Notes under the pieces: model-generated
What the model was told of the DNA's origin: nothing
Database searches by the model: none
The model's input: only the letters and a program-made list of their open reading frames with translations
NCBI GenBank assembly: GCA_022841345.1
Contig: JALHRR010000008.1
Location: forward strand, 96,994 to 147,109
Direction: 5' to 3'
From: Saprospiraceae bacterium
Lineage (GTDB): Bacteria > Bacteroidota > Bacteroidia > Chitinophagales > Saprospiraceae
Length of the DNA: 50,116 nucleotides
In this document: positions 1 to 32,940 of the stretch, piece after piece
How positions within the stretch are numbered: the first letter of the stretch is position 1
Layout of the letters: every line of letters starts with the position of its first letter
Translations under genes and position numbers: made by a program

Positions 1-89
1 AATTTAATCTTTTGGGCGGATTTTTTGAATTGAAGCAAAAATGCCGCCAAAACGAGTAACTTCGGAATCACACAAAATCAATTAGATTC

Positions 90-6536: not shown

Positions 6537-7553
6537 ATGGAAAACAAGAAAAAGAACGTTCTTTCAGCCATTCAGCCTACGGGCGATCTTCATTTGGGTA
6601 ACTACTTTGGAGCAGTTAAAAACTGGGTGGCTATTCAGGAAGAATATAATGCTGTCTATGGAGTTGTGAATTATCATACTATGACGATGCCCTATAAATC
6701 AGCACAGTTGCAGGAAGCTACCTGGAAAATGATTTTTATGGTGATGGCTTGCGGAGTTAAAGCTGAGAATTTGTTTATTCAATCTTTGATTCCGGAACAT
6801 GCAGAACTGGCCTGGATATTTGGATGTACCTGTTCATATGGTGAATTATCCCGCATGACTCAGTTCAAAGACAAGGGCGAACAATTGAAAGAAGGAGATA
6901 AAGAAGCATTTGTATCTGCTGGTTTATTCTACTACCCTGTTTTGCAGGCAGCAGATATCTTAATTTATCATGCAGATCTTGTTCCTGTAGGTAAAGATCA
7001 GGAACAGCATCTCGAACTCTCAAGAAATATCGCCGCCAGATTCAACAGACAATTTAACAAAGAATATTTTGTGCACCCCGAGCCTTTGTACACTGAAACT
7101 CCAAAAGTATTATCCCTCGCAGATCCTTCCCGCAAAATGAGCAAGAGTCTCGGTGAAAAGCATTACGTGAATCTATTCGGGGATGCAGACAGAATCAGAA
7201 AACAAGTTCGCTCAGCTGTGACAGATACCGGAGAAAGAACAGATACTATGAGTGCAGGAGTCAGCAACTTGTTTGAGCTCCTCAAAGCCTGTGAAAAGCA
7301 CGATGTGAGAAAATCACTCCTGGATGACTACAGCAGCGGCGCATTGAAATATGCAGATTTAAAAGAAGCAGTTGCGGAGGCACTTGTAGAACTAACAAAG
7401 CCTCTAAAAGAAAATCTAGCTGCCATTCAGGCTGACAAAAAGAATGTAAAATCCCAGATACAAGATAGTTCAGCTGAAATCAGAAAACGGGCTATTCAAA
7501 CTTTAAAAGATGTGAAGGAATTGACTGGGTTGGCGATTCAGAGAGGGTATTGA
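6537..7553 (+). CDS. trpS: tryptophan--tRNA ligase
   Basis: Class I aaRS HIGH variant (HLGNY) and KMSKS motifs; length 338 aa. Confidence 0.92.
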   Translation: MENKKKNVLSAIQPTGDLHLGNYFGAVKNWVAIQEEYNAVYGVVNYHTMTMPYKSAQLQEATWKMIFMVMACGVKAENLFIQSLIPEHAELAWIFGCTCSYGELSRMTQFKDKGEQLKEGDKEAFVSAGLFYYPVLQAADILIYHADLVPVGKDQEQHLELSRNIAARFNRQFNKEYFVHPEPLYTETPKVLSLADPSRKMSKSLGEKHYVNLFGDADRIRKQVRSAVTDTGERTDTMSAGVSNLFELLKACEKHDVRKSLLDDYSSGALKYADLKEAVAEALVELTKPLKENLAAIQADKKNVKSQIQDSSAEIRKRAIQTLKDVKELTGLAIQRGY

Positions 7554-8614: not shown

Positions 8615-9223
8615 GTGAAAATTTTTTGTATCGGTCGAAATTACGCTGAGCACGCAAAGGAATTAAACAATGAAGTCCCGGATGAACCGGTCATATTCAT
8701 GAAGCCGGCGACAGCTTTATTGCTGGAAAATAAACCATTTTTCATGCCTGAATTTTCTAAGGATATTCACCATGAAATCGAGGTGGTCATTCGCATCAGC
8801 AAGAAAGGGAAGCATATTCAGGAGGAATTTGCCGACAGATATTTTGAGCAATTCAGTTTAGGAATTGATTTTACAGCAAGAGATTTGCAATCACATCTAA
8901 AGTCAAAAGGACTCCCCTGGGAGAAAGCTAAAGCATTTGATCATTCAGCTGTACTCGGAAAATGGCTGGACAAAAATGATTATGACCTGAATAAGCTCAA
9001 GTTTGAACTTTACAAAAATGAAACTATCGTCCAGACAGGTGACACAAGCGATATGATATTTTCATTCCATAATTTGATTGCCCAGGTATCAAAATACTTT
9101 ACTCTGGAGCAGGGTGATCTCATCTACTCAGGGACACCTTCGGGTGTAAGTGCTGTTGCAATCGGTGATGTTCTGGTTGGCAGGATTGGGGAGCTGAGAG
9201 TGTTTTCAACAGAGATTAAGTAA
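8615..9223 (+). CDS. fumarylacetoacetate hydrolase (FAH) family protein
   Basis: 202 aa starting MKIFCIGRNYAEHAKEL (GTG start); has the conserved FAH-fold N-terminus and a GDLIYSGTPSGV segment. Confidence 0.8.
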   Translation: MKIFCIGRNYAEHAKELNNEVPDEPVIFMKPATALLLENKPFFMPEFSKDIHHEIEVVIRISKKGKHIQEEFADRYFEQFSLGIDFTARDLQSHLKSKGLPWEKAKAFDHSAVLGKWLDKNDYDLNKLKFELYKNETIVQTGDTSDMIFSFHNLIAQVSKYFTLEQGDLIYSGTPSGVSAVAIGDVLVGRIGELRVFSTEIK

Positions 9224-25435: not shown

Positions 25436-25574
25436 GAGTATATTGAGCTGGATTTTTAAAACGGGTGCAAAGATAGGGATTTAGGAAGGAATATATTTAC
25501 TGAGAAAAATACTGTTATATTTCAATTTGTTTTAGGCATCACCCCAAGGTTCAGAAATGGGATGATTGTATATC

Positions 25575-25735
25575 CAATCTTCACATTTCTGCATTCGCGG
25601 CTTGTCCCCAACGCCTTGGTGGATCGCTACGTTGCACCACTCGCTTTTCGCTCGGTACCCATTTACAACTCCACCACAATGCATTGGCGAAAGGCATGGG
25701 GACTGCCTCCCTTTGGACGGCATGGTTTCACATCT
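25575..25735. repeat. diverged copy of the palindromic intergenic repeat (GTCCCCAACGCCTTGGTGGA variant)
   Basis: Palindrome variant plus the CATGGGGACTGCCTCCCTTTGGACGG segment; overlapped only by short opposite-strand ORFs. Confidence 0.4.
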
Positions 25736-26265
25736 AAAGGCTGATGCAATCCCAACTTAAAAGCAACTATTAGAAAATAGAAATCCTTTGTGAAGTTGCT
25801 ACAATCCCGCCTTAGAGAATAATCCGTAAAAAATGGTTTTGAGTGAAGCGACCAAGGCTGTCACTGTGTGAGCAATATGTGAAGCCGGGCAGATATAGAG
25901 ATGACCTGTGAAAAATAAGCAGGAACAAGTAAGGCCAAAAGCGAGTTTGACAGACTTAGCGAAAGGAAAACGCATTTTTAGGATTAGGCTCTACAGCGGG
26001 AATGGTTTTTGTTTACTTTTTGCCATTTCAAAAAGTAAAAGCCCAGCCGGCTTGAGGCGAATTAGAAGTGCTAAATTCCAAAGTATTTTCAAATGAAGAA
26101 CTGAATACATTTTTTTGAAATAAGATTATCTAACAATATAATAGCCATCTTTCATGACTCTCAAGCTGTTCTTCAAAGCTTAAATATTCGGCCTCGAAGA
26201 AAATAATTCTAAGATATTTTGCTCCAGCTATTGTTTTATTCACAAAAGTGATTTAATCTTGCCAC

Positions 26266-26337
26266 ATGAAAACAAATCAATCTATGACATGTTGTTGTTG
26301 TCGTACTGCTCAGAGAGCGGTCGGGACTATGATGTGA
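26266..26337 (+). CDS. Cys-codon-rich mini-ORF 1 (putative leader peptide MKTNQSMTCCCCRTAQRAVGTMM)
   Basis: 23-codon ORF containing four consecutive Cys codons (TGT×4); its stop lies about 35 nt before an intrinsic terminator, upstream of a cysteine-biosynthesis operon. Confidence 0.4.
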   Translation: MKTNQSMTCCCCRTAQRAVGTMM

Positions 26338-26372
26338 TATAGATTAATACAATAAAATCCAGTTTCACAGAA

Positions 26373-26405
26373 AGCCCTTCCGCCAAAATGGAAGGGCTTT
26401 TTTTT
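26373..26405 (+). terminator. intrinsic terminator 1 (AGCCCTTCC–loop–GGAAGGGCT + T8)
   Basis: Perfect 9-bp GC-rich stem with an 8-nt loop followed by TTTTTTTT. Confidence 0.75.
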
Positions 26406-26425
26406 GATCCGATTGAATATAAAAA

Positions 26426-26524
26426 ATGAAAATGTTACATAAATCTTCTTGCTGTTGTCGCTGCTGTTGCCCTGACTGGCACACGGACCCTGGAGGTAAG
26501 AGACATGTAATATTTATCGAATAA
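26426..26524 (+). CDS. Cys-codon-rich mini-ORF 2 (putative leader peptide MKMLHKSSCCCRCCCPDWHTDPGGKRHVIFIE)
   Basis: 32-codon ORF with six Cys codons among seven consecutive codons (CCCRCCC); followed about 28 nt later by a second intrinsic terminator. Confidence 0.4.
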   Translation: MKMLHKSSCCCRCCCPDWHTDPGGKRHVIFIE

Positions 26525-26552
26525 TAGAATAGGTAAATTACATAGAACAAAA

Positions 26553-26587
26553 CCCTTCCGGTCCTCCCGGAGGGGTTTTTTATTTTT
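26553..26587 (+). terminator. intrinsic terminator 2 (CCCTTCCGG–TCCTC–CCGGAGGGG + T-run)
   Basis: 9-bp stem (one G·U) followed by TTTTTTATTTTT, immediately upstream of the peroxiredoxin start at 26613. Confidence 0.7.
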
Positions 26588-26612
26588 CACACCATCACAA
26601 ATCAAAATTATC

Positions 26613-27269
26613 ATGAGCGACTTACTTCAAAATTCAACTTCACTTCCAAAAATCGGCGATCCGGCACCGGATTTCACAGCCCAAACCACAAAAGGAACAT
26701 TTAAATTCAGTGAATGGCGGGCCGACAAATGGACAATCTTCTTTTCCCATCCTGCAGATTTTACTCCGGTTTGCACAACTGAATTAATAGAATTTGCCAG
26801 AGAATCTGACTGGTTTGCCGCCAGAAATACTCAGTTAATTGGTCTCAGTATTGACAGCATTCACGCACATCTTGCCTGGGTTCTTAATGTCAAAGAGAAA
26901 ACTGGAGTACTACTTGATTTTCCTTTGATTGCTGATCTCGATGGTTCCGTAGCAAATGCTTATGGCATGCTTCATCCGGGTGCCAGCTCCACTGCAACTG
27001 TACGTGCGGTTTTCATCATTGATCCGAAAGGCATTGTAAGATTATTGATCTATTATCCATTGAATATAGGACGTGGAATAGAAGAAATCAAAAGAGTGAT
27101 GGAAGCTTTACAAACCGCAGATCAATACAGTGTAGCGCTTCCTGTCAACTGGAAGAAAGGTGAAAATGTAGTGGTTCCTGCACCTAAGACACTCGCAGAA
27201 ATTGAGAAAAATGAGGCAGCAGGCTATGAAGAAAGAATTGATTTTTATTTGCAAAAAAGAAGTCTCTAA
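26613..27269 (+). CDS. 1-Cys peroxiredoxin (Prx6-like, AhpC/TSA family)
   Basis: Peroxidatic Cys motif FTPVCTTE; 218 aa with a C-terminal extension containing PVNWKKGE, typical of the 1-Cys Prx subfamily. Confidence 0.88.
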   Translation: MSDLLQNSTSLPKIGDPAPDFTAQTTKGTFKFSEWRADKWTIFFSHPADFTPVCTTELIEFARESDWFAARNTQLIGLSIDSIHAHLAWVLNVKEKTGVLLDFPLIADLDGSVANAYGMLHPGASSTATVRAVFIIDPKGIVRLLIYYPLNIGRGIEEIKRVMEALQTADQYSVALPVNWKKGENVVVPAPKTLAEIEKNEAAGYEERIDFYLQKRSL

Positions 27270-27280
27270 AGACACAAATC

Positions 27281-28213
27281 ATGGTAGCACAGCAAACAAA
27301 TCAGGGGCAATATCAGCTGCTTAAACAGCTCAATCAATTGCAAAAATTTATTGGCAATACACCATTGTATCCCATTTCAAGGGTCTGGTCCAAGCCCGGG
27401 GTGCAGGTGTATGCCAAGTTGGAGTGGTATCAGCTGGGCGGGAGTATAAAGTCCCGCCCGGCTTTCCACATCATCAAGGCTGCATTGACTGATATCAACT
27501 GGACGAGTGGAAAGCGCTTACTGGACGCCACTAGTGGGAATACCGGAATAGCTTATGCAGCCATTAGTTCCGCACTGGGATTGCCTCTGACGCTGTGTAT
27601 ACCCGAAAATGCATCCAAAGAGCGCATAGATATATTGCGTTCACACCAGACGGATCTGGTTTTTACTTCCAGATTTGAAGGGACAGATGGAGCACAGGAA
27701 GTAGCCAAAAGAATGCAGCTTGAAAAACCTGAGGAATATATCTTGCTGGATCAATATAGCAATTGCGCTAACTGGCAGGCACATATCAGGACTACTGCTC
27801 CTGAGATTTGGGCACAGACACAGGGCCAGGTTACGCACTTTGTAGCAGGGCTGGGCACCACCGGGACTGTGACAGGAACTTCAAAAGGATTGAAGGCATT
27901 CAATTCACGCATCAAAGTAATTGGTCTTCAGCCTGATTCTCCGATGCACGGATTGGAAGGCTGGAAGCATTTGGAGACTGCAATTATACCTCCGATTTAT
28001 AAGCCACAGGCACATGACGAGCTTTTGGAAATCAATACAGAAGAGGCCATTGATCTAATGAAAAAAGTAGCTATCAAGGAAGGTTTGCAAATCAGTCCTT
28101 CCAGTGCTGCCAATCTCCTTGGAGCCATCAAAGTAGCAGAAAAATTAAGTTCAGGAACGGTCGTCACCACATTTGCAGACGACGCATCCAAGTATCGTGA
28201 AATCTGGAATTAA
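27281..28213 (+). CDS. PLP-dependent cysteine synthase (CysM-like; candidate CysO-thiocarboxylate-dependent O-phosphoserine/O-acetylserine sulfhydrylase)
   Basis: Beta-substituted alanine synthase fold with a PLP-lysine motif (GGSIKSRPA) and a glycine-rich loop (GLGTTGTVTG); sits in the cluster with the sulfur carrier, JAMM protease and E1. Confidence 0.8.
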   Translation: MVAQQTNQGQYQLLKQLNQLQKFIGNTPLYPISRVWSKPGVQVYAKLEWYQLGGSIKSRPAFHIIKAALTDINWTSGKRLLDATSGNTGIAYAAISSALGLPLTLCIPENASKERIDILRSHQTDLVFTSRFEGTDGAQEVAKRMQLEKPEEYILLDQYSNCANWQAHIRTTAPEIWAQTQGQVTHFVAGLGTTGTVTGTSKGLKAFNSRIKVIGLQPDSPMHGLEGWKHLETAIIPPIYKPQAHDELLEINTEEAIDLMKKVAIKEGLQISPSSAANLLGAIKVAEKLSSGTVVTTFADDASKYREIWN

Positions 28214-28225
28214 ACAACAAACAAC

Positions 28226-28678
28226 ATGAGCACACACATTAAAACATCGACCTTGCAATTATCAGCTTCCGGACTGGAGGTGGTCAGAAAAGACGCCGTC
28301 AAAGCCTATCCGGATGAATGCTGCGGATTTCTTTTTGGCACCGAAACAGAAGGACGCAAAATCACATTAGCGGTCCCGGTGACTAATCACAAGGATGGAG
28401 ATAAAAGAAGAAGATTTGAAATTCATCCTCAGGATTATTTGAGAGCTGAACGACTTGCTGCTGAAATCGGACTGGATCTTTTGGGAGTGTACCACTCACA
28501 TCCGGAACATCCTGCACTTCCTTCATTGACCGATCTCGAAATGGCACTACCTTACTTTTCGTATGTAATCGTTTCGGTAAAATCAGGTAAAGTAGTGGAC
28601 GAGCGCTCCTGGAAACTCAATGAATCTCTGGGACTTTTTGAAGAAGAATTTATTATGCAACCTATACATTTATCGTAA
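28226..28678 (+). CDS. Mov34/MPN+ (JAMM) zinc metalloprotease, Mec+-like
   Basis: JAMM motif E…HSHPEHPALPSLTD (HxHx7Sx2D), 150 aa. Confidence 0.85.
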   Translation: MSTHIKTSTLQLSASGLEVVRKDAVKAYPDECCGFLFGTETEGRKITLAVPVTNHKDGDKRRRFEIHPQDYLRAERLAAEIGLDLLGVYHSHPEHPALPSLTDLEMALPYFSYVIVSVKSGKVVDERSWKLNESLGLFEEEFIMQPIHLS

Positions 28679-28680
28679 TC

Positions 28681-28965
28681 ATGGCAACTATTATCATACC
28701 AACACCGCTCAGAAAATTTACCGGAAATCAATCCACTTTCAAAGTGAATGATGCCGGAACAATCTCCGAAGCGATACATTCCCTGACAGATCAGTACACA
28801 GATTTAAAGAAACACGTGATAGACGAGGAGGGAAAAATCCGTTCATTCGTCAGATTGTATCTCGGCGATGAAGATGTCTCAGCATTGGATCAAAAAGCTG
28901 AAACCCGCATCAAAGAATCAGATGTGATTTCAATAGTACCTGCCATTGCGGGAGGTAAAATCTAA
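28681..28965 (+). CDS. ThiS/MoaD-family sulfur-carrier protein (CysO-like) with C-terminal Gly-Gly followed by a 2-residue extension
   Basis: 94-aa beta-grasp protein ending …VPAIAGGKI; the GG-KI terminus implies processing by the adjacent JAMM protease to expose the GG for adenylation and thiocarboxylation. Confidence 0.8.
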   Translation: MATIIIPTPLRKFTGNQSTFKVNDAGTISEAIHSLTDQYTDLKKHVIDEEGKIRSFVRLYLGDEDVSALDQKAETRIKESDVISIVPAIAGGKI

Positions 28966-28984
28966 AGACTTAAAAAACAAAAGT

Positions 28985-30124
28985 ATGTCAGACATCAAAT
29001 TTTCTCCTGAAGAACTCTCCCGATACAGCCGGCATATCATCATTCCGGAATTTAATCTGGAAGGCCAGAAAAAGTTGAAGGCAGCTAAAGTTCTGGTAAT
29101 CGGAAGCGGGGGGCTGGGAAGTCCTTTATTGCTTTATTTGGCAGCAGCCGGCGTTGGAACTATCGGAATTGTTGACTTTGATACTATCGATGACAGCAAC
29201 TTGCAAAGGCAGATTCTCTTCACAACAGATGATGTGGGAAAATTAAAAGCAAGCACTGCAGCGGAACGGATCAAAGCATTGAATCCATTCATACAGGTGA
29301 ATGTGCACAACACACATTTAACAAGTCAAAACGCTCTGGAAATCATCAAAGACTACGATGTCGTAGCAGATGGAACTGATAATTTTCCGACAAGATATTT
29401 GGTTAATGACGCTTGTGTTTTGCTGGATAAGGTAAATGTATATGCCTCCATATATCGGTTTGAAGGGCAATTGTCCGTTTTCAATCTTCCGCTCCCGGAT
29501 GGCAGGAGAGGGCCGAACTATCGGGACTTATTTCCTGAACCGCCACCTCCGGGATTAGTGCCCAGTTGTGCAGAGGGAGGAGTTTTGGGAGTGCTTCCGG
29601 GAATACTGGGCTCACTTCAGGCTGCGGAGGTCATCAAAGTAATCAGCAAAGTGGGTGAGCCATTGAGTGGAAAATTATTCACAATAGATGTGGCAGATTT
29701 TCAAACCCGAACTTTGAAAATTCACAAGCAGGAGAGTACCAAAATTGAGAAACTAATAGATTATGAATTATTCTGTGGACTAAAAAATGAAAATATGAGC
29801 AGCGAAGTAAAAGAAATAACGGTTGGACAACTGGCAGAATGGATTGAATCAGGCAAAGATTTTCAGTTGATCGATGTCAGAGAACCCCATGAATATGAGA
29901 TTGCGGAGATAGGCGGATTACTCATCCCATTGGCGCAAGTAATAGAAAATGCAGACAAAATATCGCAGGAAAAGCCGGTGGTCATCCACTGCAGAAGTGG
30001 TGTAAGAAGTGCAAAGGCGATCAGAGAATTGCAGGAATTGCATGGATGGGATCATCTGTACAATCTGAAAGGCGGCATTCTTGCCTGGGCTGATGAGATT
30101 GATCAGCTGGTTACGAAATATTGA
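28985..30124 (+). CDS. MoeZ-type E1: ThiF/MoeB adenylyltransferase fused to a C-terminal rhodanese domain
   Basis: Nucleotide-binding GSGGLGSP motif and two CxxC-like pairs in the E1 domain; C-terminal rhodanese with the active-site loop IHCRSGVRS; start taken at MSDIKFSPEEL (28985), downstream of the cysO stop. Confidence 0.85.
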   Translation: MSDIKFSPEELSRYSRHIIIPEFNLEGQKKLKAAKVLVIGSGGLGSPLLLYLAAAGVGTIGIVDFDTIDDSNLQRQILFTTDDVGKLKASTAAERIKALNPFIQVNVHNTHLTSQNALEIIKDYDVVADGTDNFPTRYLVNDACVLLDKVNVYASIYRFEGQLSVFNLPLPDGRRGPNYRDLFPEPPPPGLVPSCAEGGVLGVLPGILGSLQAAEVIKVISKVGEPLSGKLFTIDVADFQTRTLKIHKQESTKIEKLIDYELFCGLKNENMSSEVKEITVGQLAEWIESGKDFQLIDVREPHEYEIAEIGGLLIPLAQVIENADKISQEKPVVIHCRSGVRSAKAIRELQELHGWDHLYNLKGGILAWADEIDQLVTKY

Positions 30125-30160
30125 ATAATGTAAGTTGACAATAATTAACAAGTAAATATA

Positions 30161-30176
30161 ACCCCGAACGGGGTTT
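30161..30176 (+). terminator. weak hairpin (CCCCGAACGGGG + TTT) after moeZ
   Basis: Short GC stem and short T-run; may mark the operon end. Confidence 0.3.
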
Positions 30177-30254
30177 ACCAATCGTTAGCCCCGGATGAAA
30201 ATCAGGGTTCAATAAATAACAGCATCTGTTTTGGCGGCATTTTTGCCCGATGCA

Positions 30255-30292: not shown

Positions 30293-30567
30293 CAAAGTTG
30301 ATGTAAGGAAAGAGTTTGTTCAAAGAAACTAATCCGTTAGGGTCGGAGTAGATAAGTATTTTTTATAAAGTTATGTTGATCTGTGAATTTTTGGTAGAAG
30401 GAGTTCTTCAATGGAAGGGCTCCTTTTTAAGAAGGCAAGAATGGGTTAAGGTTGATTAGAATTAAAAGGTTTAAGCCAAGCTAAATAGAAAGCATTTTTC
30501 ATAAATAACTGAAGATGTTTTGTAACAATAAATAATGTTTCTATATTTGGAAACCCATTGCAAGAAT

Positions 30568-30945
30568 ATGGCAAATATGGAAAAACCTATTGAAGTAATA
30601 TTCCTGAAACAGGCAGAAGAATTTACAGAGTCTATTGAAGAAAATCCCAAAAAGAAACTATTTCAGGCAATCCGAAAAACCAAAGAACGATTATTCGGAC
30701 AATGGTTTACTAAATTGAAAAGTAGTGACGGTATATTTGAGTTTCGAGTGGATGACAGTGGAAAATTTTATCGGCTTTTTGCATTTTGGGATACAGAAGA
30801 AGACGAAGAGACCTTGGTTGTGGCTACTCATGGCCTAATCAAAAAGACCAATAAAACACCACAATCGGAAATTCGGAAAGCAGAGCAGATAAAACGGGAC
30901 TACTTCGAAGAAAAGAAAAATGATAAAAAGAATAAATCAAAGTAA
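30568..30945 (+). CDS. type II toxin, RelE/ParE superfamily (HigB-like / phage Gp49-like addiction-module killer)
   Basis: The motif series IFEFRVDDSGKFYRLFAFWDTEE…LVVATHGLIKKTNKTPQSEIRKAEQIKRDY is characteristic of the Gp49/HigB-type toxin family, and an HTH antitoxin lies immediately downstream; start at MANMEKP. Confidence 0.7.
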   Translation: MANMEKPIEVIFLKQAEEFTESIEENPKKKLFQAIRKTKERLFGQWFTKLKSSDGIFEFRVDDSGKFYRLFAFWDTEEDEETLVVATHGLIKKTNKTPQSEIRKAEQIKRDYFEEKKNDKKNKSK

Positions 30946-30951
30946 ATAGCA

Positions 30952-31275
30952 ATGGCAACAAAAAAATATAAAACATTAGGTGAACTGGAAGATAGATTTT
31001 TCGGTGAACGTGGCACTTCTGTGAGAGAACAATATGAATTTGAACTCAGCATGGAGATATTGGGAGAAAAACTCAAGCAAATCCGGAAAGAAAAGCAATT
31101 GACCCAGGATGAGTTGGGGAAATTAATAGGAGTTCAAAAAGCCCAGATTTCAAAACTGGAGAACGGAGCAAGCAGTGCGACAGTTTCGACCATTTTGAAA
31201 GTGTTCAAAGCATTAAATGCCAAAGTGAAATTCCAGATTGAGATAGAAGATGGATACCAATTGGCCGTTTCATGA
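30952..31275 (+). CDS. HigA-like antitoxin, XRE-family HTH protein
   Basis: 107 aa with an HTH_3 motif (LTQDELGKLIGVQKAQISKLENG); starts 7 nt after the toxin. Confidence 0.75.
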   Translation: MATKKYKTLGELEDRFFGERGTSVREQYEFELSMEILGEKLKQIRKEKQLTQDELGKLIGVQKAQISKLENGASSATVSTILKVFKALNAKVKFQIEIEDGYQLAVS

Positions 31276-31353
31276 GTAAGGAAGTAAGCAAGTAATATCT
31301 TAACAAGCAATTCGAATGTAAATTGGGAATCGCGAATACTAAATGACAAAATT

Positions 31354-31661
31354 ATGAGCAAATTGAAAGATAAGAACTTGATGACACTTGAGGAGTTCAT
31401 AGTAAAAAACTACGGCAAAAATGGGATAAAACAGCGTGACGAATTAGAAGCAGGTTATGAAGCATTCAAAATCGGGGCGTTGATCCACGACCTCGTATCG
31501 ACATGGGGATGACACAAGAACAACTTGCACAAAAAGTGGGAACAACCAAATCTTACATTTCTAAAATCGAGAACGATATAAAAGAAGCACGCATTTCGAC
31601 CCTTCAAAAAATCATTGAACTTGGGTTTGGTGGGCGACTTGAATTGAATATAAAACTCTGA
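31354..31661 (+). pseudogene. second HigA-like XRE HTH gene interrupted by a 1-nt frameshift (or sequencing error)
   Basis: Frame 1 gives MSKLKDKNLMTLEEFIVKNYGKNGIKQRDELEAGYEAFKIGALIHDLVSTWG*. A shift near 31492 continues it as …MGMTQEQLAQKVGTTKSYISKIENDIKEARISTLQKIIELGFGGRLELNIKL*, and the joined product is a paralog of the 30952 antitoxin. Confidence 0.5.
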
Positions 31662-31756
31662 TGCGGTCGGCTTGAATAAAACCTTCTGTAGCGACATTTA
31701 CAGGTAAGCAGATAATAGTAAAGCGTTCGCATATTCAATCCACTTGAAAATATTCT

Positions 31757-31823
31757 CTTGCGGTGAAAAAATCAAATATTCACCGCAATTATGCGGTAAA
31801 TAAATTGTATATTTGCCGCATAG
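31757..31823 (+). promoter_or_regulatory. two operator-like inverted repeats upstream of the Fic gene
   Basis: TTGCGGTGAA–12 nt–TTCACCGCAA, then TATGCGGTAAAT–10 nt–ATTTGCCGCATA, ending 14 nt before the Fic ATG. Confidence 0.5.
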
Positions 31824-31836
31824 TTGATTTTGAACC

Positions 31837-32940
31837 ATGGCAAAATACATTTACGAACATAAAAACTGGCCAGACTTTACCTGGGATGATAAAGTCATCA
31901 ATTCGGTATTTGGTGAAGTTCGCTTAATGCAGGGCAAAATCATTGGACAAATGAACGCTCTTGGGTTTTCTGCTAAAGAGGAAGCGACACTGAACGCTTT
32001 GACCTTAGACATCGTCAAATCATCTGAAATAGAAGGCGAATTGCTCAACTATGATCAGGTACGTTCATCCATTGCAAGACGCCTAGGAATCAACACTGCA
32101 GGGCTTGTACCGGGTAGCCGGCACATAGAAGGCATTGTAGAAATGATGCTGGATGCTACTCAACGCTACAAATTACCTATAACCGAAAAACGTTTGTGTG
32201 GTTGGCACGCAGCACTTTTTCCCACAGGATATAGCGGGCCTTACAAGATAGAAGTGGGTAGATATCGTACAGGTGAAATGCAGGTAGTTTCCGGAGCCAT
32301 GGGTAAAGAAAAAGTACATTACGAAGCAGTAAAACCTGCACTTGTAAAAGCGGAAATGGACAAATTAATAAATTGGTTCAACAATGACACTACACTTGAT
32401 CCTGTGCTAAAAGCTGCCATCGCTCACTTTTGGTTTATCATCATCCACCCCTTTGATGACGGAAACGGCCGGATTGCCAGGGCTATAAGCGATATGTTGC
32501 TTGCCCGTTCCGAAAATAGTGGCGAACGATTTTACAGTATGTCTAACCAAATTTTAGCAGAACGCAAACGCTATTACGAAATATTGCAAAAAGTACAACA
32601 CAGCTCAGGCGACATTACCGGATGGATCGAATGGTTTTTACATTGCCTGAAAAACGCAATACTTGCCACCGAACAAACGACACAAAAAATATTGCGTAAA
32701 GCTGAATTTTGGAAGCGGCATGAACAGACATCCATCAACGAACGACAGCGCATTATGCTCAACAAACTTTTTGACGGATTTGAAGGGAAATTGCAAACCT
32801 CCAAATGGGCAAAAATCACCAAAACCTCTACTGATACCGCATTACGGGATATAAAAGACCTGATAGAAAAAGGTATTTTACAACAAACAGACGAAGGTGG
32901 GCGAAGCGTTAATTATGAATTGACAGACTTTAAACGTTAG
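31837..32940 (+). CDS. Fic-family protein (class II, AMPylation-type) with C-terminal winged-helix domain
   Basis: Complete Fic motif HPFDDGNGRIARA; N-terminal inhibitory-helix motif SSEIEG ([ST]xxxE[GN]) upstream of the core. Confidence 0.88.
   Translation: MAKYIYEHKNWPDFTWDDKVINSVFGEVRLMQGKIIGQMNALGFSAKEEATLNALTLDIVKSSEIEGELLNYDQVRSSIARRLGINTAGLVPGSRHIEGIVEMMLDATQRYKLPITEKRLCGWHAALFPTGYSGPYKIEVGRYRTGEMQVVSGAMGKEKVHYEAVKPALVKAEMDKLINWFNNDTTLDPVLKAAIAHFWFIIIHPFDDGNGRIARAISDMLLARSENSGERFYSMSNQILAERKRYYEILQKVQHSSGDITGWIEWFLHCLKNAILATEQTTQKILRKAEFWKRHEQTSINERQRIMLNKLFDGFEGKLQTSKWAKITKTSTDTALRDIKDLIEKGILQQTDEGGRSVNYELTDFKR

Follow-up and report, generated by a model that had tools for sequence, protein, structure and literature searches.

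Introduction

In Mycobacterium tuberculosis, cysteine is assembled on a protein carrier: MoeZR converts CysO to its thiocarboxylate form, O-phosphoserine is added by CysM, and the resulting CysO-cysteine adduct is hydrolysed by Mec+ (PMC3227635, PMC11361707; pathway of Burns et al. 2005). An operon composed of ThiS/MoaD, E1-rhodanese, JAB and cysteine synthase genes was tabulated as row 4c by Iyer, Burroughs & Aravind in 2006, with the Bacteroidetes/Chlorobi example 'Srub' (PMC1779556). Here we describe a locus in the genome of a Saprospiraceae bacterium (GCA_022841345.1, contig JALHRR010000008.1, positions 96,994-147,109, forward strand; this whole stretch of 50,116 nt is called the window). 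Its five genes at 26613-30124 probably form a self-contained operon that makes cysteine by way of a protein thiocarboxylate, as the CysO/CysM/Mec+/MoeZ system of M. tuberculosis does, with a gene for a 1-Cys peroxiredoxin (Prx) in first place and two tandem cysteinyl-tRNA attenuators upstream. The pathway itself is already known and the core of the operon is ordinary. What the locus adds is a probable terminator-based, sometimes tandem poly-Cys attenuator in Bacteroidota, a near-universal capping of the carrier diglycine in the clade, and a 1-Cys Prx placed under the cysteine sensor. All coordinates are positions in the window, and L001 and similar labels denote other genomic loci.

Upstream open reading frames (uORFs) rich in cysteine codons are known from a few bacterial groups. 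The mycobacterial 'Cys ribulon' is governed by leaderless polycysteine uORFs, which act at the level of translation, in the characterised example through sequestration of the ribosome-binding site (Canestrari et al., bioRxiv 10.1101/834739). Other actinobacterial Cys leaders were predicted, without terminators (PMC1262725), and the uORFC-8-2 motif joins a two-Cys uORF to a terminator 5' of cysS in Rhodobacterales (PMC8632094). We found no literature on Cys leaders of Bacteroidota or of CysO-type operons, and Bacteroidota Cys leaders are not mentioned by Naville & Gautheret 2010 or Korolev 2016.

Organisation and distribution of the operon

The operon comprises five genes on the + strand, separated by intergenic gaps of 11, 12, 2 and 19 nt, as follows:

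26613..27269, + strand: 1-Cys peroxiredoxin (Prx6-type), 218 aa; AhpC-TSA 6.6e-33 and 1-cysPrx_C; PRK13189
27281..28213, + strand: CysM-like fold-type II pyridoxal-phosphate (PLP) enzyme (cysteine synthase B family, divergent subfamily), 310 aa; PALP 2e-60
28226..28678, + strand: JAMM/MPN+ metallopeptidase (Mec+/QbsD/HcyD-like), 150 aa; Prok-JAB 2e-24
28681..28965, + strand: CysO-like ThiS/MoaD beta-grasp sulfur carrier, 94 aa, C-terminus ...PAIAGG-KI; ThiS (PF02597) 2.8e-10
28985..30124, + strand: MoeZR-type E1, ThiF/MoeB adenylation domain with C-terminal rhodanese; ThiF 2.9e-78, Rhodanese 3.7e-13

Pfam analysis of the five products revealed AhpC-TSA with 1-cysPrx_C, PALP, Prok-JAB, ThiS, and ThiF with Rhodanese, respectively, with E-values ranging from 3e-10 to 3e-78. 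The initial annotation of this DNA, made from the sequence alone, had described a nearly gap-free, same-strand cluster of five genes around a CysO-type core (cysteine synthase, JAMM protein, carrier and MoeZ E1). The ORFs indeed lie on the + strand where stated, the motifs that it quoted were found (JAMM HSHPEHPALPSLTD, rhodanese IHCRSGVRS, carrier tail AIAGGKI), and the comparisons of carrier, PLP enzyme, E1 and JAMM protein given below all agree with the core assignment. The start of the E1 gene was revised. The mechanically called ORF begins at TTG 28946 and overlaps the carrier gene, and alignment with the relative L001 identified ATG 28985, 19 nt past the carrier stop codon, as the conserved start.

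When a genome collection was scanned with the JAMM protein, 33 loci were obtained, and 19 of them (L001-L019; 16 from Bacteroidota and three others) keep the order CysM-JAMM-carrier-E1. These belong to Saprospiraceae, Microscillaceae, Sphingobacteriales, Chitinophagales and Flavobacteriales, with one locus each from Planctomycetota, Spirochaetaceae (Spirochaetota) and Desulfovibrio. The repetition of this gene order in 19 further loci shows that the genes have not come together by chance. The initial annotation had called this organisation not typical for Bacteroidota; its presence in 16 Bacteroidota species representatives from five lineages, and the tabulation of the type in 2006 (PMC1779556), contradict that statement. 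Protein-level identity between the window and contig JADJJU010000005.1, from a Saprospiraceae metagenome-assembled genome, was 93-100%. No cysE, cysK or sulfate-assimilation genes were found within ~10 kb on either side of the operon.

CysM-like enzyme, JAMM peptidase and E1

The product of the gene at 27281, annotated at first as a PLP cysteine synthase that could be either CysM or CysK, sided with CysM in both profile and structure matches. Its best NCBIfam model is cysM TIGR01138 (282.1 bits, cutoff 394.2) as compared to 218 bits for cysK, and its best PDB matches are the Salmonella and E. coli CysM structures 2jc3/2bht, which score about 190 bits as against 132 bits for M. tuberculosis CysM. 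The catalytic Lys (GSIKSR) and the TSGNTG loop (ATSGNTG) are preserved. In place of the phosphate-binding Arg, R220 of M. tuberculosis CysM (whose reference sequence matches PDB 3dwg_A residues 3-325 exactly) and R210 of Salmonella CysM, the enzyme carries K229-H230 within the signature HGLEGWKH. This Lys-His is invariant across 21 operon-linked enzymes, so that the charge is kept but the residue differs. The clade signature in the operon-linked CysM enzymes of the window, L001-L019 and L021 reads (P/A)(M/L/F)HG(L/I)EGxKH(L/M). Judged by their sequences, the operon-linked PLP enzymes are a distinct CysM subfamily, and HG(L/I)EGxKH would offer a usable marker for carrier-dependent CysM enzymes, which are generically labelled in public databases. 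By its sequence, the enzyme may use either O-phosphoserine or O-acetylserine.

The active site of the JAMM protein is complete, with the Glu in PDECCGF and the HxHx7SxxD motif in HSHPEHPALPSLTD. Its best PDB match is 2kcq ('Mov34/MPN/PAD-1 family', 103 bits), and its gene adjoins the carrier gene in 20/20 operon copies. The E1 carries the motifs GSGGLGS, NLQRQ, DGTDN, SCAEGG (Cys) and HCRSGVRS (rhodanese Cys); both the adenylation residues and the catalytic rhodanese Cys, the loss of which had been named in the initial annotation as refuting the assignment, are thus present. Both CxxC motifs are missing from the E1, NYRD replacing the first, and absence of CxxC is the stated distinction of MoeZ/MoeZR from MoeB/MoeBR (PMC3227635). 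The NCBIfam scores of 488.6 bits for PRK07411 and 470.2 bits for PRK07878 (MoeZ; cutoff 647) are both below cutoff. By its motifs, the E1 is of the MoeZR type.

The carrier, E1 and JAMM protein could, on the other hand, make up a ubiquitin-like protein-modification system of the SAMP/TtuB/Urm1 type, possibly with Prx among its targets and the JAMM protein as deconjugase, cysteine synthesis being secondary or absent. Within this kind of system, the best NCBIfam match of the carrier is SAMP1 at 54.6 bits, that of the JAMM protein desampylase at 65.5 bits and that of the E1 a SAMP-activating E1 at 279.5 bits; all of these, however, lie under the family cutoffs. The best solved relative of the E1 is Uba4 (6yub), which activates Urm1, and the thiocarboxylate of Urm1 reacts with Ahp1, a peroxiredoxin, in its oxidised state (PMC9574740). 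In six loci the operon begins with Prx, which most operon copies lack, whereas all of L001-L019 have a CysM-type PLP enzyme gene alongside, and poly-Cys leaders link expression to cysteine supply. Moreover, no E2-like domain is present, and the PADLOC matches are weak and at domain level alone. We consider protein modification unlikely as the function of the operon, although ubiquitin-like conjugation may be a side activity. A defence module (CBASS Cap2/Cap3, 6A-MBL) was also considered and rejected: the E1 has a rhodanese and not an E2 domain, the neighbouring genes are unrelated, and PADLOC matches were limited to the nucleotide-binding region (<=68 bits) and generic JAB (<=33 bits), with none for the carrier.

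The sulfur carrier and its capped diglycine

Sulfur carriers with residues beyond the diglycine, trimmed by a JAMM enzyme, are known from the QbsE/QbsD pair (thioquinolobactin) and the HcyS/HcyD pair (Wolinella methionine). The top PDB matches of the carrier encoded in the window are CysO proteins, 4n6e_B (46.9 bits) and M. tuberculosis CysO 3dwg_C (44 bits), aligned through ...PA(I/V)AGG. Both of these stop at GG, whereas the carrier in the window extends with KI. The GG-KI tail reported in the initial annotation proved real, and it has counterparts throughout the clade. Residues follow PAIAGG in 20/20 operon copies (KI, IY, SL, SF, CC, CI, SC, LF, K, C, Y, KD, RRG and a few longer), and a post-GG tail was present in 115 of the 120 closest among about 2,000 database carrier homologues; these tails are most often of two residues, and at least 60 different ones occur. 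The tail differs even in L001, a near-identical relative, where IY stands in place of KI. A single-Cys cap (GG-C) occurs in the L013 carrier and in 5/120 homologues. Carrier ends containing Cys were also observed as GGCC in L007 and GGCI in L008, next to the GGC of L013.

As compared across these sequences, the removable cap is a clade trait and capping is near-universal. A short cap free of sequence constraint is as expected for a propeptide that is simply removed, and we infer that the adjoining JAMM enzyme is the trimmer. A GG-C precursor would be chemically identical to the carrier-GG-Cys intermediate that the pathway requires the JAMM enzyme to cut in any case, which makes one JAMM enzyme plausible for both maturation and product release. 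Capping as a clade rule therefore predicts a JAMM enzyme that plausibly has these two roles.

Poly-cysteine leaders and terminators upstream of the operon

The 1.2-kb stretch between prfC (RF3, minus strand) and the Prx gene, the regulatory part of which was not mentioned in the initial annotation, holds two mini-ORFs arranged as tandem leader-terminator modules at 26266-26588:

26266..26337, + strand: leader ORF L1 (MKTNQSMTCCCCRT...), 23 aa MKTNQSMTCCCCRTAQRAVGTMM; four consecutive Cys codons at 26290-26301 (CCCC); conserved in L001
26370..26405, + strand: terminator of leader L1; 13-bp stem (AAAGCCCUUCCGC / loop / ...GGAAGGGCUUU) and T-run
26426..26524, + strand: leader ORF L2 (MKMLHKSSCCCRCCCP...), 32 aa MKMLHKSSCCCRCCCPDWHTDPGGKRHVIFIE; six Cys codons within 26450-26470 (CCCRCCC); 100% identical in L001
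26549..26588, + strand: terminator of leader L2; 13-bp stem, 5-nt loop, T-run

The two terminator stems have folding energies of -19.8 and -18.9 kcal/mol. The two-module tandem is kept in L001 at 96% identity, where the second stem is lengthened in a compensatory way, an inserted G pairing with a T-to-C substitution, and tandem modules recur independently in the Flavobacteriales locus L016. Poly-Cys ORFs were present on the same strand, 87-363 nt 5' of the first operon gene, in L001, L006-L009, L011-L013, L015 and L016. Poly-Cys leaders with TTG or short ATG starts were present in L002-L005 and L010; a mini-ORF scan restricted to ATG starts had missed the Microscillaceae and L010 leaders, and a search for codon runs (TTG/ATG starts) recovered them. 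In total, about 15/16 Bacteroidota loci have a poly-Cys leader, the exception being L014. The mini-ORF upstream in L014 (1289-1400; MINKNFVRCRFNIFEGEGL) has a single Cys codon, with the terminator kept, and may be a degenerate or re-tuned attenuator.

Runs of at least four Cys (TGY) codons were strongly enriched, with 21 observed in 477 kb as compared to 0.6 expected from shuffles, and 17/21 stood in leader positions. An intrinsic terminator lies between the leader and the first gene in every leader-bearing locus, and no gene intervenes. Outside the Cys run the leader peptides are unrelated between lineages; within the group L007/L008/L009/L013 the peptide is well conserved (MN..TQAMNNMMCCCCCCF..GGQGALYLCR). 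At gathering threshold, Rfam matched neither the window nor any of seven related loci; with E <= 1, the region 25436-26640 gave terminator-like sub-threshold matches alone, the best being Phe_leader (24 bits, E = 0.2). The ~800 nt at 25436-26260, between prfC and leader L1, showed no convincing ORF, tRNA or Rfam match.

A second poly-Cys leader (e.g. MIQYTQNMMCCCCCQPRQPDSYWCR) was observed directly 3' of the E1 gene in L007 (10224-10301), L008 (10173-10250) and L013 (10228-10305). In L007, which the annotation of the downstream genes covered, it precedes Cys_Met_Meta_PP, alpha/beta-hydrolase and homoserine-dehydrogenase genes, that is, a metY-metX-hom-type operon. The poly-Cys device seems to coordinate sulfur amino-acid synthesis as a small cysteine/methionine regulon, and the carrier possibly also serves MetY in these loci.

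The metY-type operon, with a poly-Cys leader of its own directly 3' of E1 in these three loci, is what could be expected if the carrier thiocarboxylate fed another sulfur product (homocysteine/methionine via MetY as in Wolinella HcyS, the molybdenum cofactor, or a thio-metabolite) and the CysM-like enzyme worked independently on free sulfide or thiosulfate. The closer resemblance of the PLP enzyme to enteric CysM than to M. tuberculosis CysM would fit such an arrangement, and M. tuberculosis MoeZR serves both CysO and MoaD (PMC3227635). In the window, however, no MetY, MoaE or siderophore gene was found within ~10 kb of the operon, the CysM-JAMM-carrier-E1 synteny is strict in 20 copies, the leader senses Cys and not Met codons, and the carrier is most similar to CysO. 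Another sulfur product is therefore improbable as the purpose of the carrier.

Folding of the leader transcripts

Folding was modelled at equilibrium (minimum free energy with ribosome masks) and then with transcripts truncated before the terminator 3' arm. In the truncated fold without a stall, the Cys-codon segment pairs with the downstream segment and the terminator 5' arm is left free. When a ribosome footprint covers the Cys codons, the downstream segment pairs instead with the terminator 5' arm, and this was seen for both leaders in the window. The antiterminator of leader L1 joins GCGG..GGG (26317-26327) with CCC..CCGC (26374-26383), and that of leader L2 joins GGAC..GGAGG (about 26486-26496) with CCUUC..GGUC (about 26552-26563). 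Over 17 leaders, the mean probability that the terminator 5' arm pairs upstream was 0.74 for the stalled ribosome, 0.44 for a ribosome at the stop codon and 0.45 for dinucleotide-shuffled spacers. The observed value was matched by at most 5 of 100 shuffles in 10/17 leaders.

In L007/L008/L009/L013, the antiterminator strand GGCGGACAGGGUGC forms part of the leader ORF, encodes GGQGA and complements the invariant arm GCCCUUCCGCC, which is nearly identical to the 5' arm of the leader L1 terminator in the window. Both GGCGGACAGGGUGC and GCCCUUCCGCC are conserved at the nucleotide level across orders. The GGQGA codons being exactly the strand complementary to the terminator arm, their conservation argues for a constraint at the RNA level. 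In these models, the two modules of the window appear to be tandem ribosome-mediated transcription attenuators that read cysteinyl-tRNA supply.

Conservation of the leader peptide within L007/L008/L009/L013 might also be expected if the poly-Cys mini-ORFs encoded functional Cys-rich peptides, such as metal-binding peptides or precursors of ribosomally synthesised and post-translationally modified peptides. They could also be fortuitous, the hairpins merely ending upstream transcripts; several leaders do not beat shuffles. But the peptides differ between lineages outside the Cys run, while their position is fixed at 87-363 nt upstream on the same strand, with a terminator each and no gene between. 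Further, the GGQGA codons complement the terminator arm, the same device stands before the metY-type operon, and Cys-sensing uORFs have precedents (10.1101/834739; PMC8632094). Peptide function or a fortuitous origin is therefore very unlikely. The putative attenuation supports cysteine as the product of the operon, because the poly-Cys leaders tie its expression to cysteine supply, and this is the strongest support that is independent of homology. The leader thereby gives regulation-based evidence that genes annotated generically as 'MoaD/ThiS family' and 'MoeB' make cysteine. The putative poly-Cys attenuator is widespread in Bacteroidota, a phylum with poorly charted amino-acid regulation.

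The 1-Cys peroxiredoxin

The initial annotation had placed a 1-Cys peroxiredoxin at the head of the cluster, and the gene, 11 nt 5' of the CysM-like gene, indeed encodes a true 1-Cys Prx. The protein has PF00578 and PF10417 domains and matches NCBIfam PRK13189 at 264.7 bits, above the cutoff of 211. Its sole Cys is C54 in FTPVCTTE, with no resolving Cys, and exactly one Cys is present in all six operon-linked Prx orthologues. Prx was found in 6/20 operon copies (window, L001, L007, L008, L013 and L016), always as the first gene past leader and terminator, and its expression is therefore predicted to follow cysteine supply. The simplest reading is that of a peroxide defence co-induced when cysteine-derived thiols are scarce; Prx would probably be induced with the pathway and protect the cell or its thiol chemistry when these thiols are depleted. 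This fits the situation in M. tuberculosis, where mec, cysO, cysM and moeZ are reported to be up-regulated under oxidative stress (PMC11361707). The placement of a 1-Cys Prx as first gene under a cysteine sensor would tie thiol supply to peroxide defence.

A closer partnership between Prx and carrier can be conceived by analogy with the reaction of Urm1-thiocarboxylate with the oxidised peroxiredoxin Ahp1 (PMC9574740). The carrier thiocarboxylate would resolve or reduce the sulfenylated peroxidatic Cys, passing via an acyl-disulfide to persulfidated or carrier-conjugated Prx. Such a bacterial counterpart of Urm1-Ahp1 would be reversed by the JAMM enzyme of the operon, with the whole module induced by cysteine starvation via the tandem attenuators. 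We regard this partnership as quite unlikely.

A hairpin of ~48 nt with the invariant loop CUGGUUCGAAAGGAUAC was observed in the Prx-CysM spacer of L007 (about 6810-6858), L008 (about 6746-6794) and L013 (about 6795-6843), and is absent from the window. The three sequences show 4 compensatory base-pair changes, no T-run and no Rfam match. The hairpin may act in the processing or stability of the RNA, or in regulation.

Proposed mechanism and its assessment

For a self-contained, attenuator-controlled cysteine-synthesis operon, the following course of events is proposed. Transcription would start 5' of 26266. When Cys-tRNA is ample, ribosomes would traverse the CCCC tract of leader L1 and the CCCRCCC tract of leader L2, the antiterminator strand would be occupied by the Cys-codon segment or by the ribosome, and the terminators at ~26370-26405 and 26549-26588 would stop the polymerase. 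When Cys-tRNA is scarce, the ribosome would stall on the Cys codons, and the freed downstream strand would pair with the terminator 5' arm, allowing read-through into the genes. The JAMM peptidase would then cut off the KI cap and expose the GG terminus of the carrier, which the E1 would adenylate and, with its rhodanese persulfide, convert to the thiocarboxylate. The CysM-like PLP enzyme would make aminoacrylate from O-phosphoserine or O-acetylserine for attack by the carrier thiocarboxylate. After an S-to-N acyl shift, hydrolysis of the carrier-GG-Cys amide by the JAMM enzyme would free cysteine and regenerate the carrier.

Several observations weigh against this proposal, in which all enzymology and regulation are inferred from sequence, synteny and folding models. 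At 190 versus 132 bits, the PLP enzyme is nearer to enteric CysM than to that of M. tuberculosis, the enteric enzyme using free sulfide or thiosulfate, and it has Lys-His in place of the phosphate-binding Arg of the M. tuberculosis enzyme. The PLP enzyme, the E1 and the carrier all score under the NCBIfam equivalog cutoffs (cysM, MoeZ/MoeB and SAMP1), which indicates a divergent subfamily. As for regulation, equilibrium folds always retain the terminator, and the antiterminator arises in the kinetic truncated-transcript models alone. The leaders of L003 and L016 and the second leader of L001 (L001-L2) were no better than shuffles. Antiterminator covariation was looked for and gave no signal, since both strands are conserved without change in the sequences at hand. 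A poly-Cys leader was not found in any of the three non-Bacteroidota operons. Finally, no promoter could be assigned: a Bacteroidota-type promoter (TAnnTTTG) was not found upstream of leader L1, and the sole promoter-like site, at 26115-26142, is of the sigma-70 type.

Neighbouring genes and repeats

An interspersed repeat of ~100 nt lies 3' of the E1 gene at 30156-30249 (+). It contains two GC-rich hairpins (AACCCCGAACGGGGTT; AGCCCCGGATGAAAATCAGGG) and ends with TGTTTTGGCGGCATTTTTGC; a partial copy is present at 35-54 (-) of the window, and the L001 copy (about 8745-8865) stands directly after the carrier gene, between carrier and E1, at a place where the tail of the carrier likewise departs from the window (IY against KI). 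The repeat looks like a mobile element of the repetitive extragenic palindrome or miniature inverted-repeat transposable element type (REP/MITE-like). Further downstream lie genes for a Gp49/HigB-like toxin and an HTH_3 antitoxin-like protein (30535-31275), then two short ORFs without annotation (31354-31661) and a gene for a DUF4172-Fic/DOC protein (31837-32940). The stretch 30535-32940 is a patch of toxin-antitoxin and Fic modules with no relation to the operon. A scan of the window for tRNA and tmRNA found none.

Comparison with known systems

The locus has exactly the same four-gene core as type 4c of Iyer et al. 2006. Three of its features are not described in that catalogue, namely the leader peptides, the clade-wide capping of GG and the linkage to Prx. 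With the M. tuberculosis CysO-CysM-Mec+-MoeZR system it shares the four protein types, an E1 without CxxC and, as far as can be judged, the chemistry. In contrast to M. tuberculosis, where moeZ is unlinked and CysO ends in GG, the E1 gene lies inside the operon and the carrier ends in GG-KI. Its PLP enzyme, from another CysM subfamily, carries Lys-His where the M. tuberculosis enzyme has R220; ClpS and a helical protein are both missing, a 1-Cys Prx is added, and the putative poly-Cys attenuator is terminator-based.

The carrier resembles those of the QbsE/QbsD and HcyS/HcyD pairs in having post-GG residues that are to be removed before adenylation and in the adjoining JAMM gene. Those pairs act towards a siderophore or homocysteine, whereas here a CysM-type enzyme and cysteine are expected, and the tails, generally of 1-2 residues, are hypervariable. 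The Urm1-Uba4/Ahp1 system is similar in combining a Uba4-like E1-rhodanese, the thiocarboxylate of a ubiquitin-like protein and a peroxiredoxin. However, Prx is here of the Prx6-type with one Cys and not of the Prx5-type with two, and its linkage is genomic alone and found in 6/20 copies.

As in the mycobacterial Cys uORFs, runs of Cys codons would sense Cys-tRNA, and one device serves more than a single operon, here those of the CysO and metY types. The mycobacterial uORFs are leaderless and act on translation, whereas each leader described here has an intrinsic terminator with a competing antiterminator, and two such leaders stand in tandem. The arrangement of a short ORF, tandem regulatory codons inside a stem and then an intrinsic terminator is that of uORFC-8-2 and of the classical trp/his/phe attenuators. 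In contrast to uORFC-8-2, it occurs in another phylum, has no Rfam match, precedes a CysO-type biosynthetic operon rather than cysS, and carries 4-6 Cys codons instead of 2.

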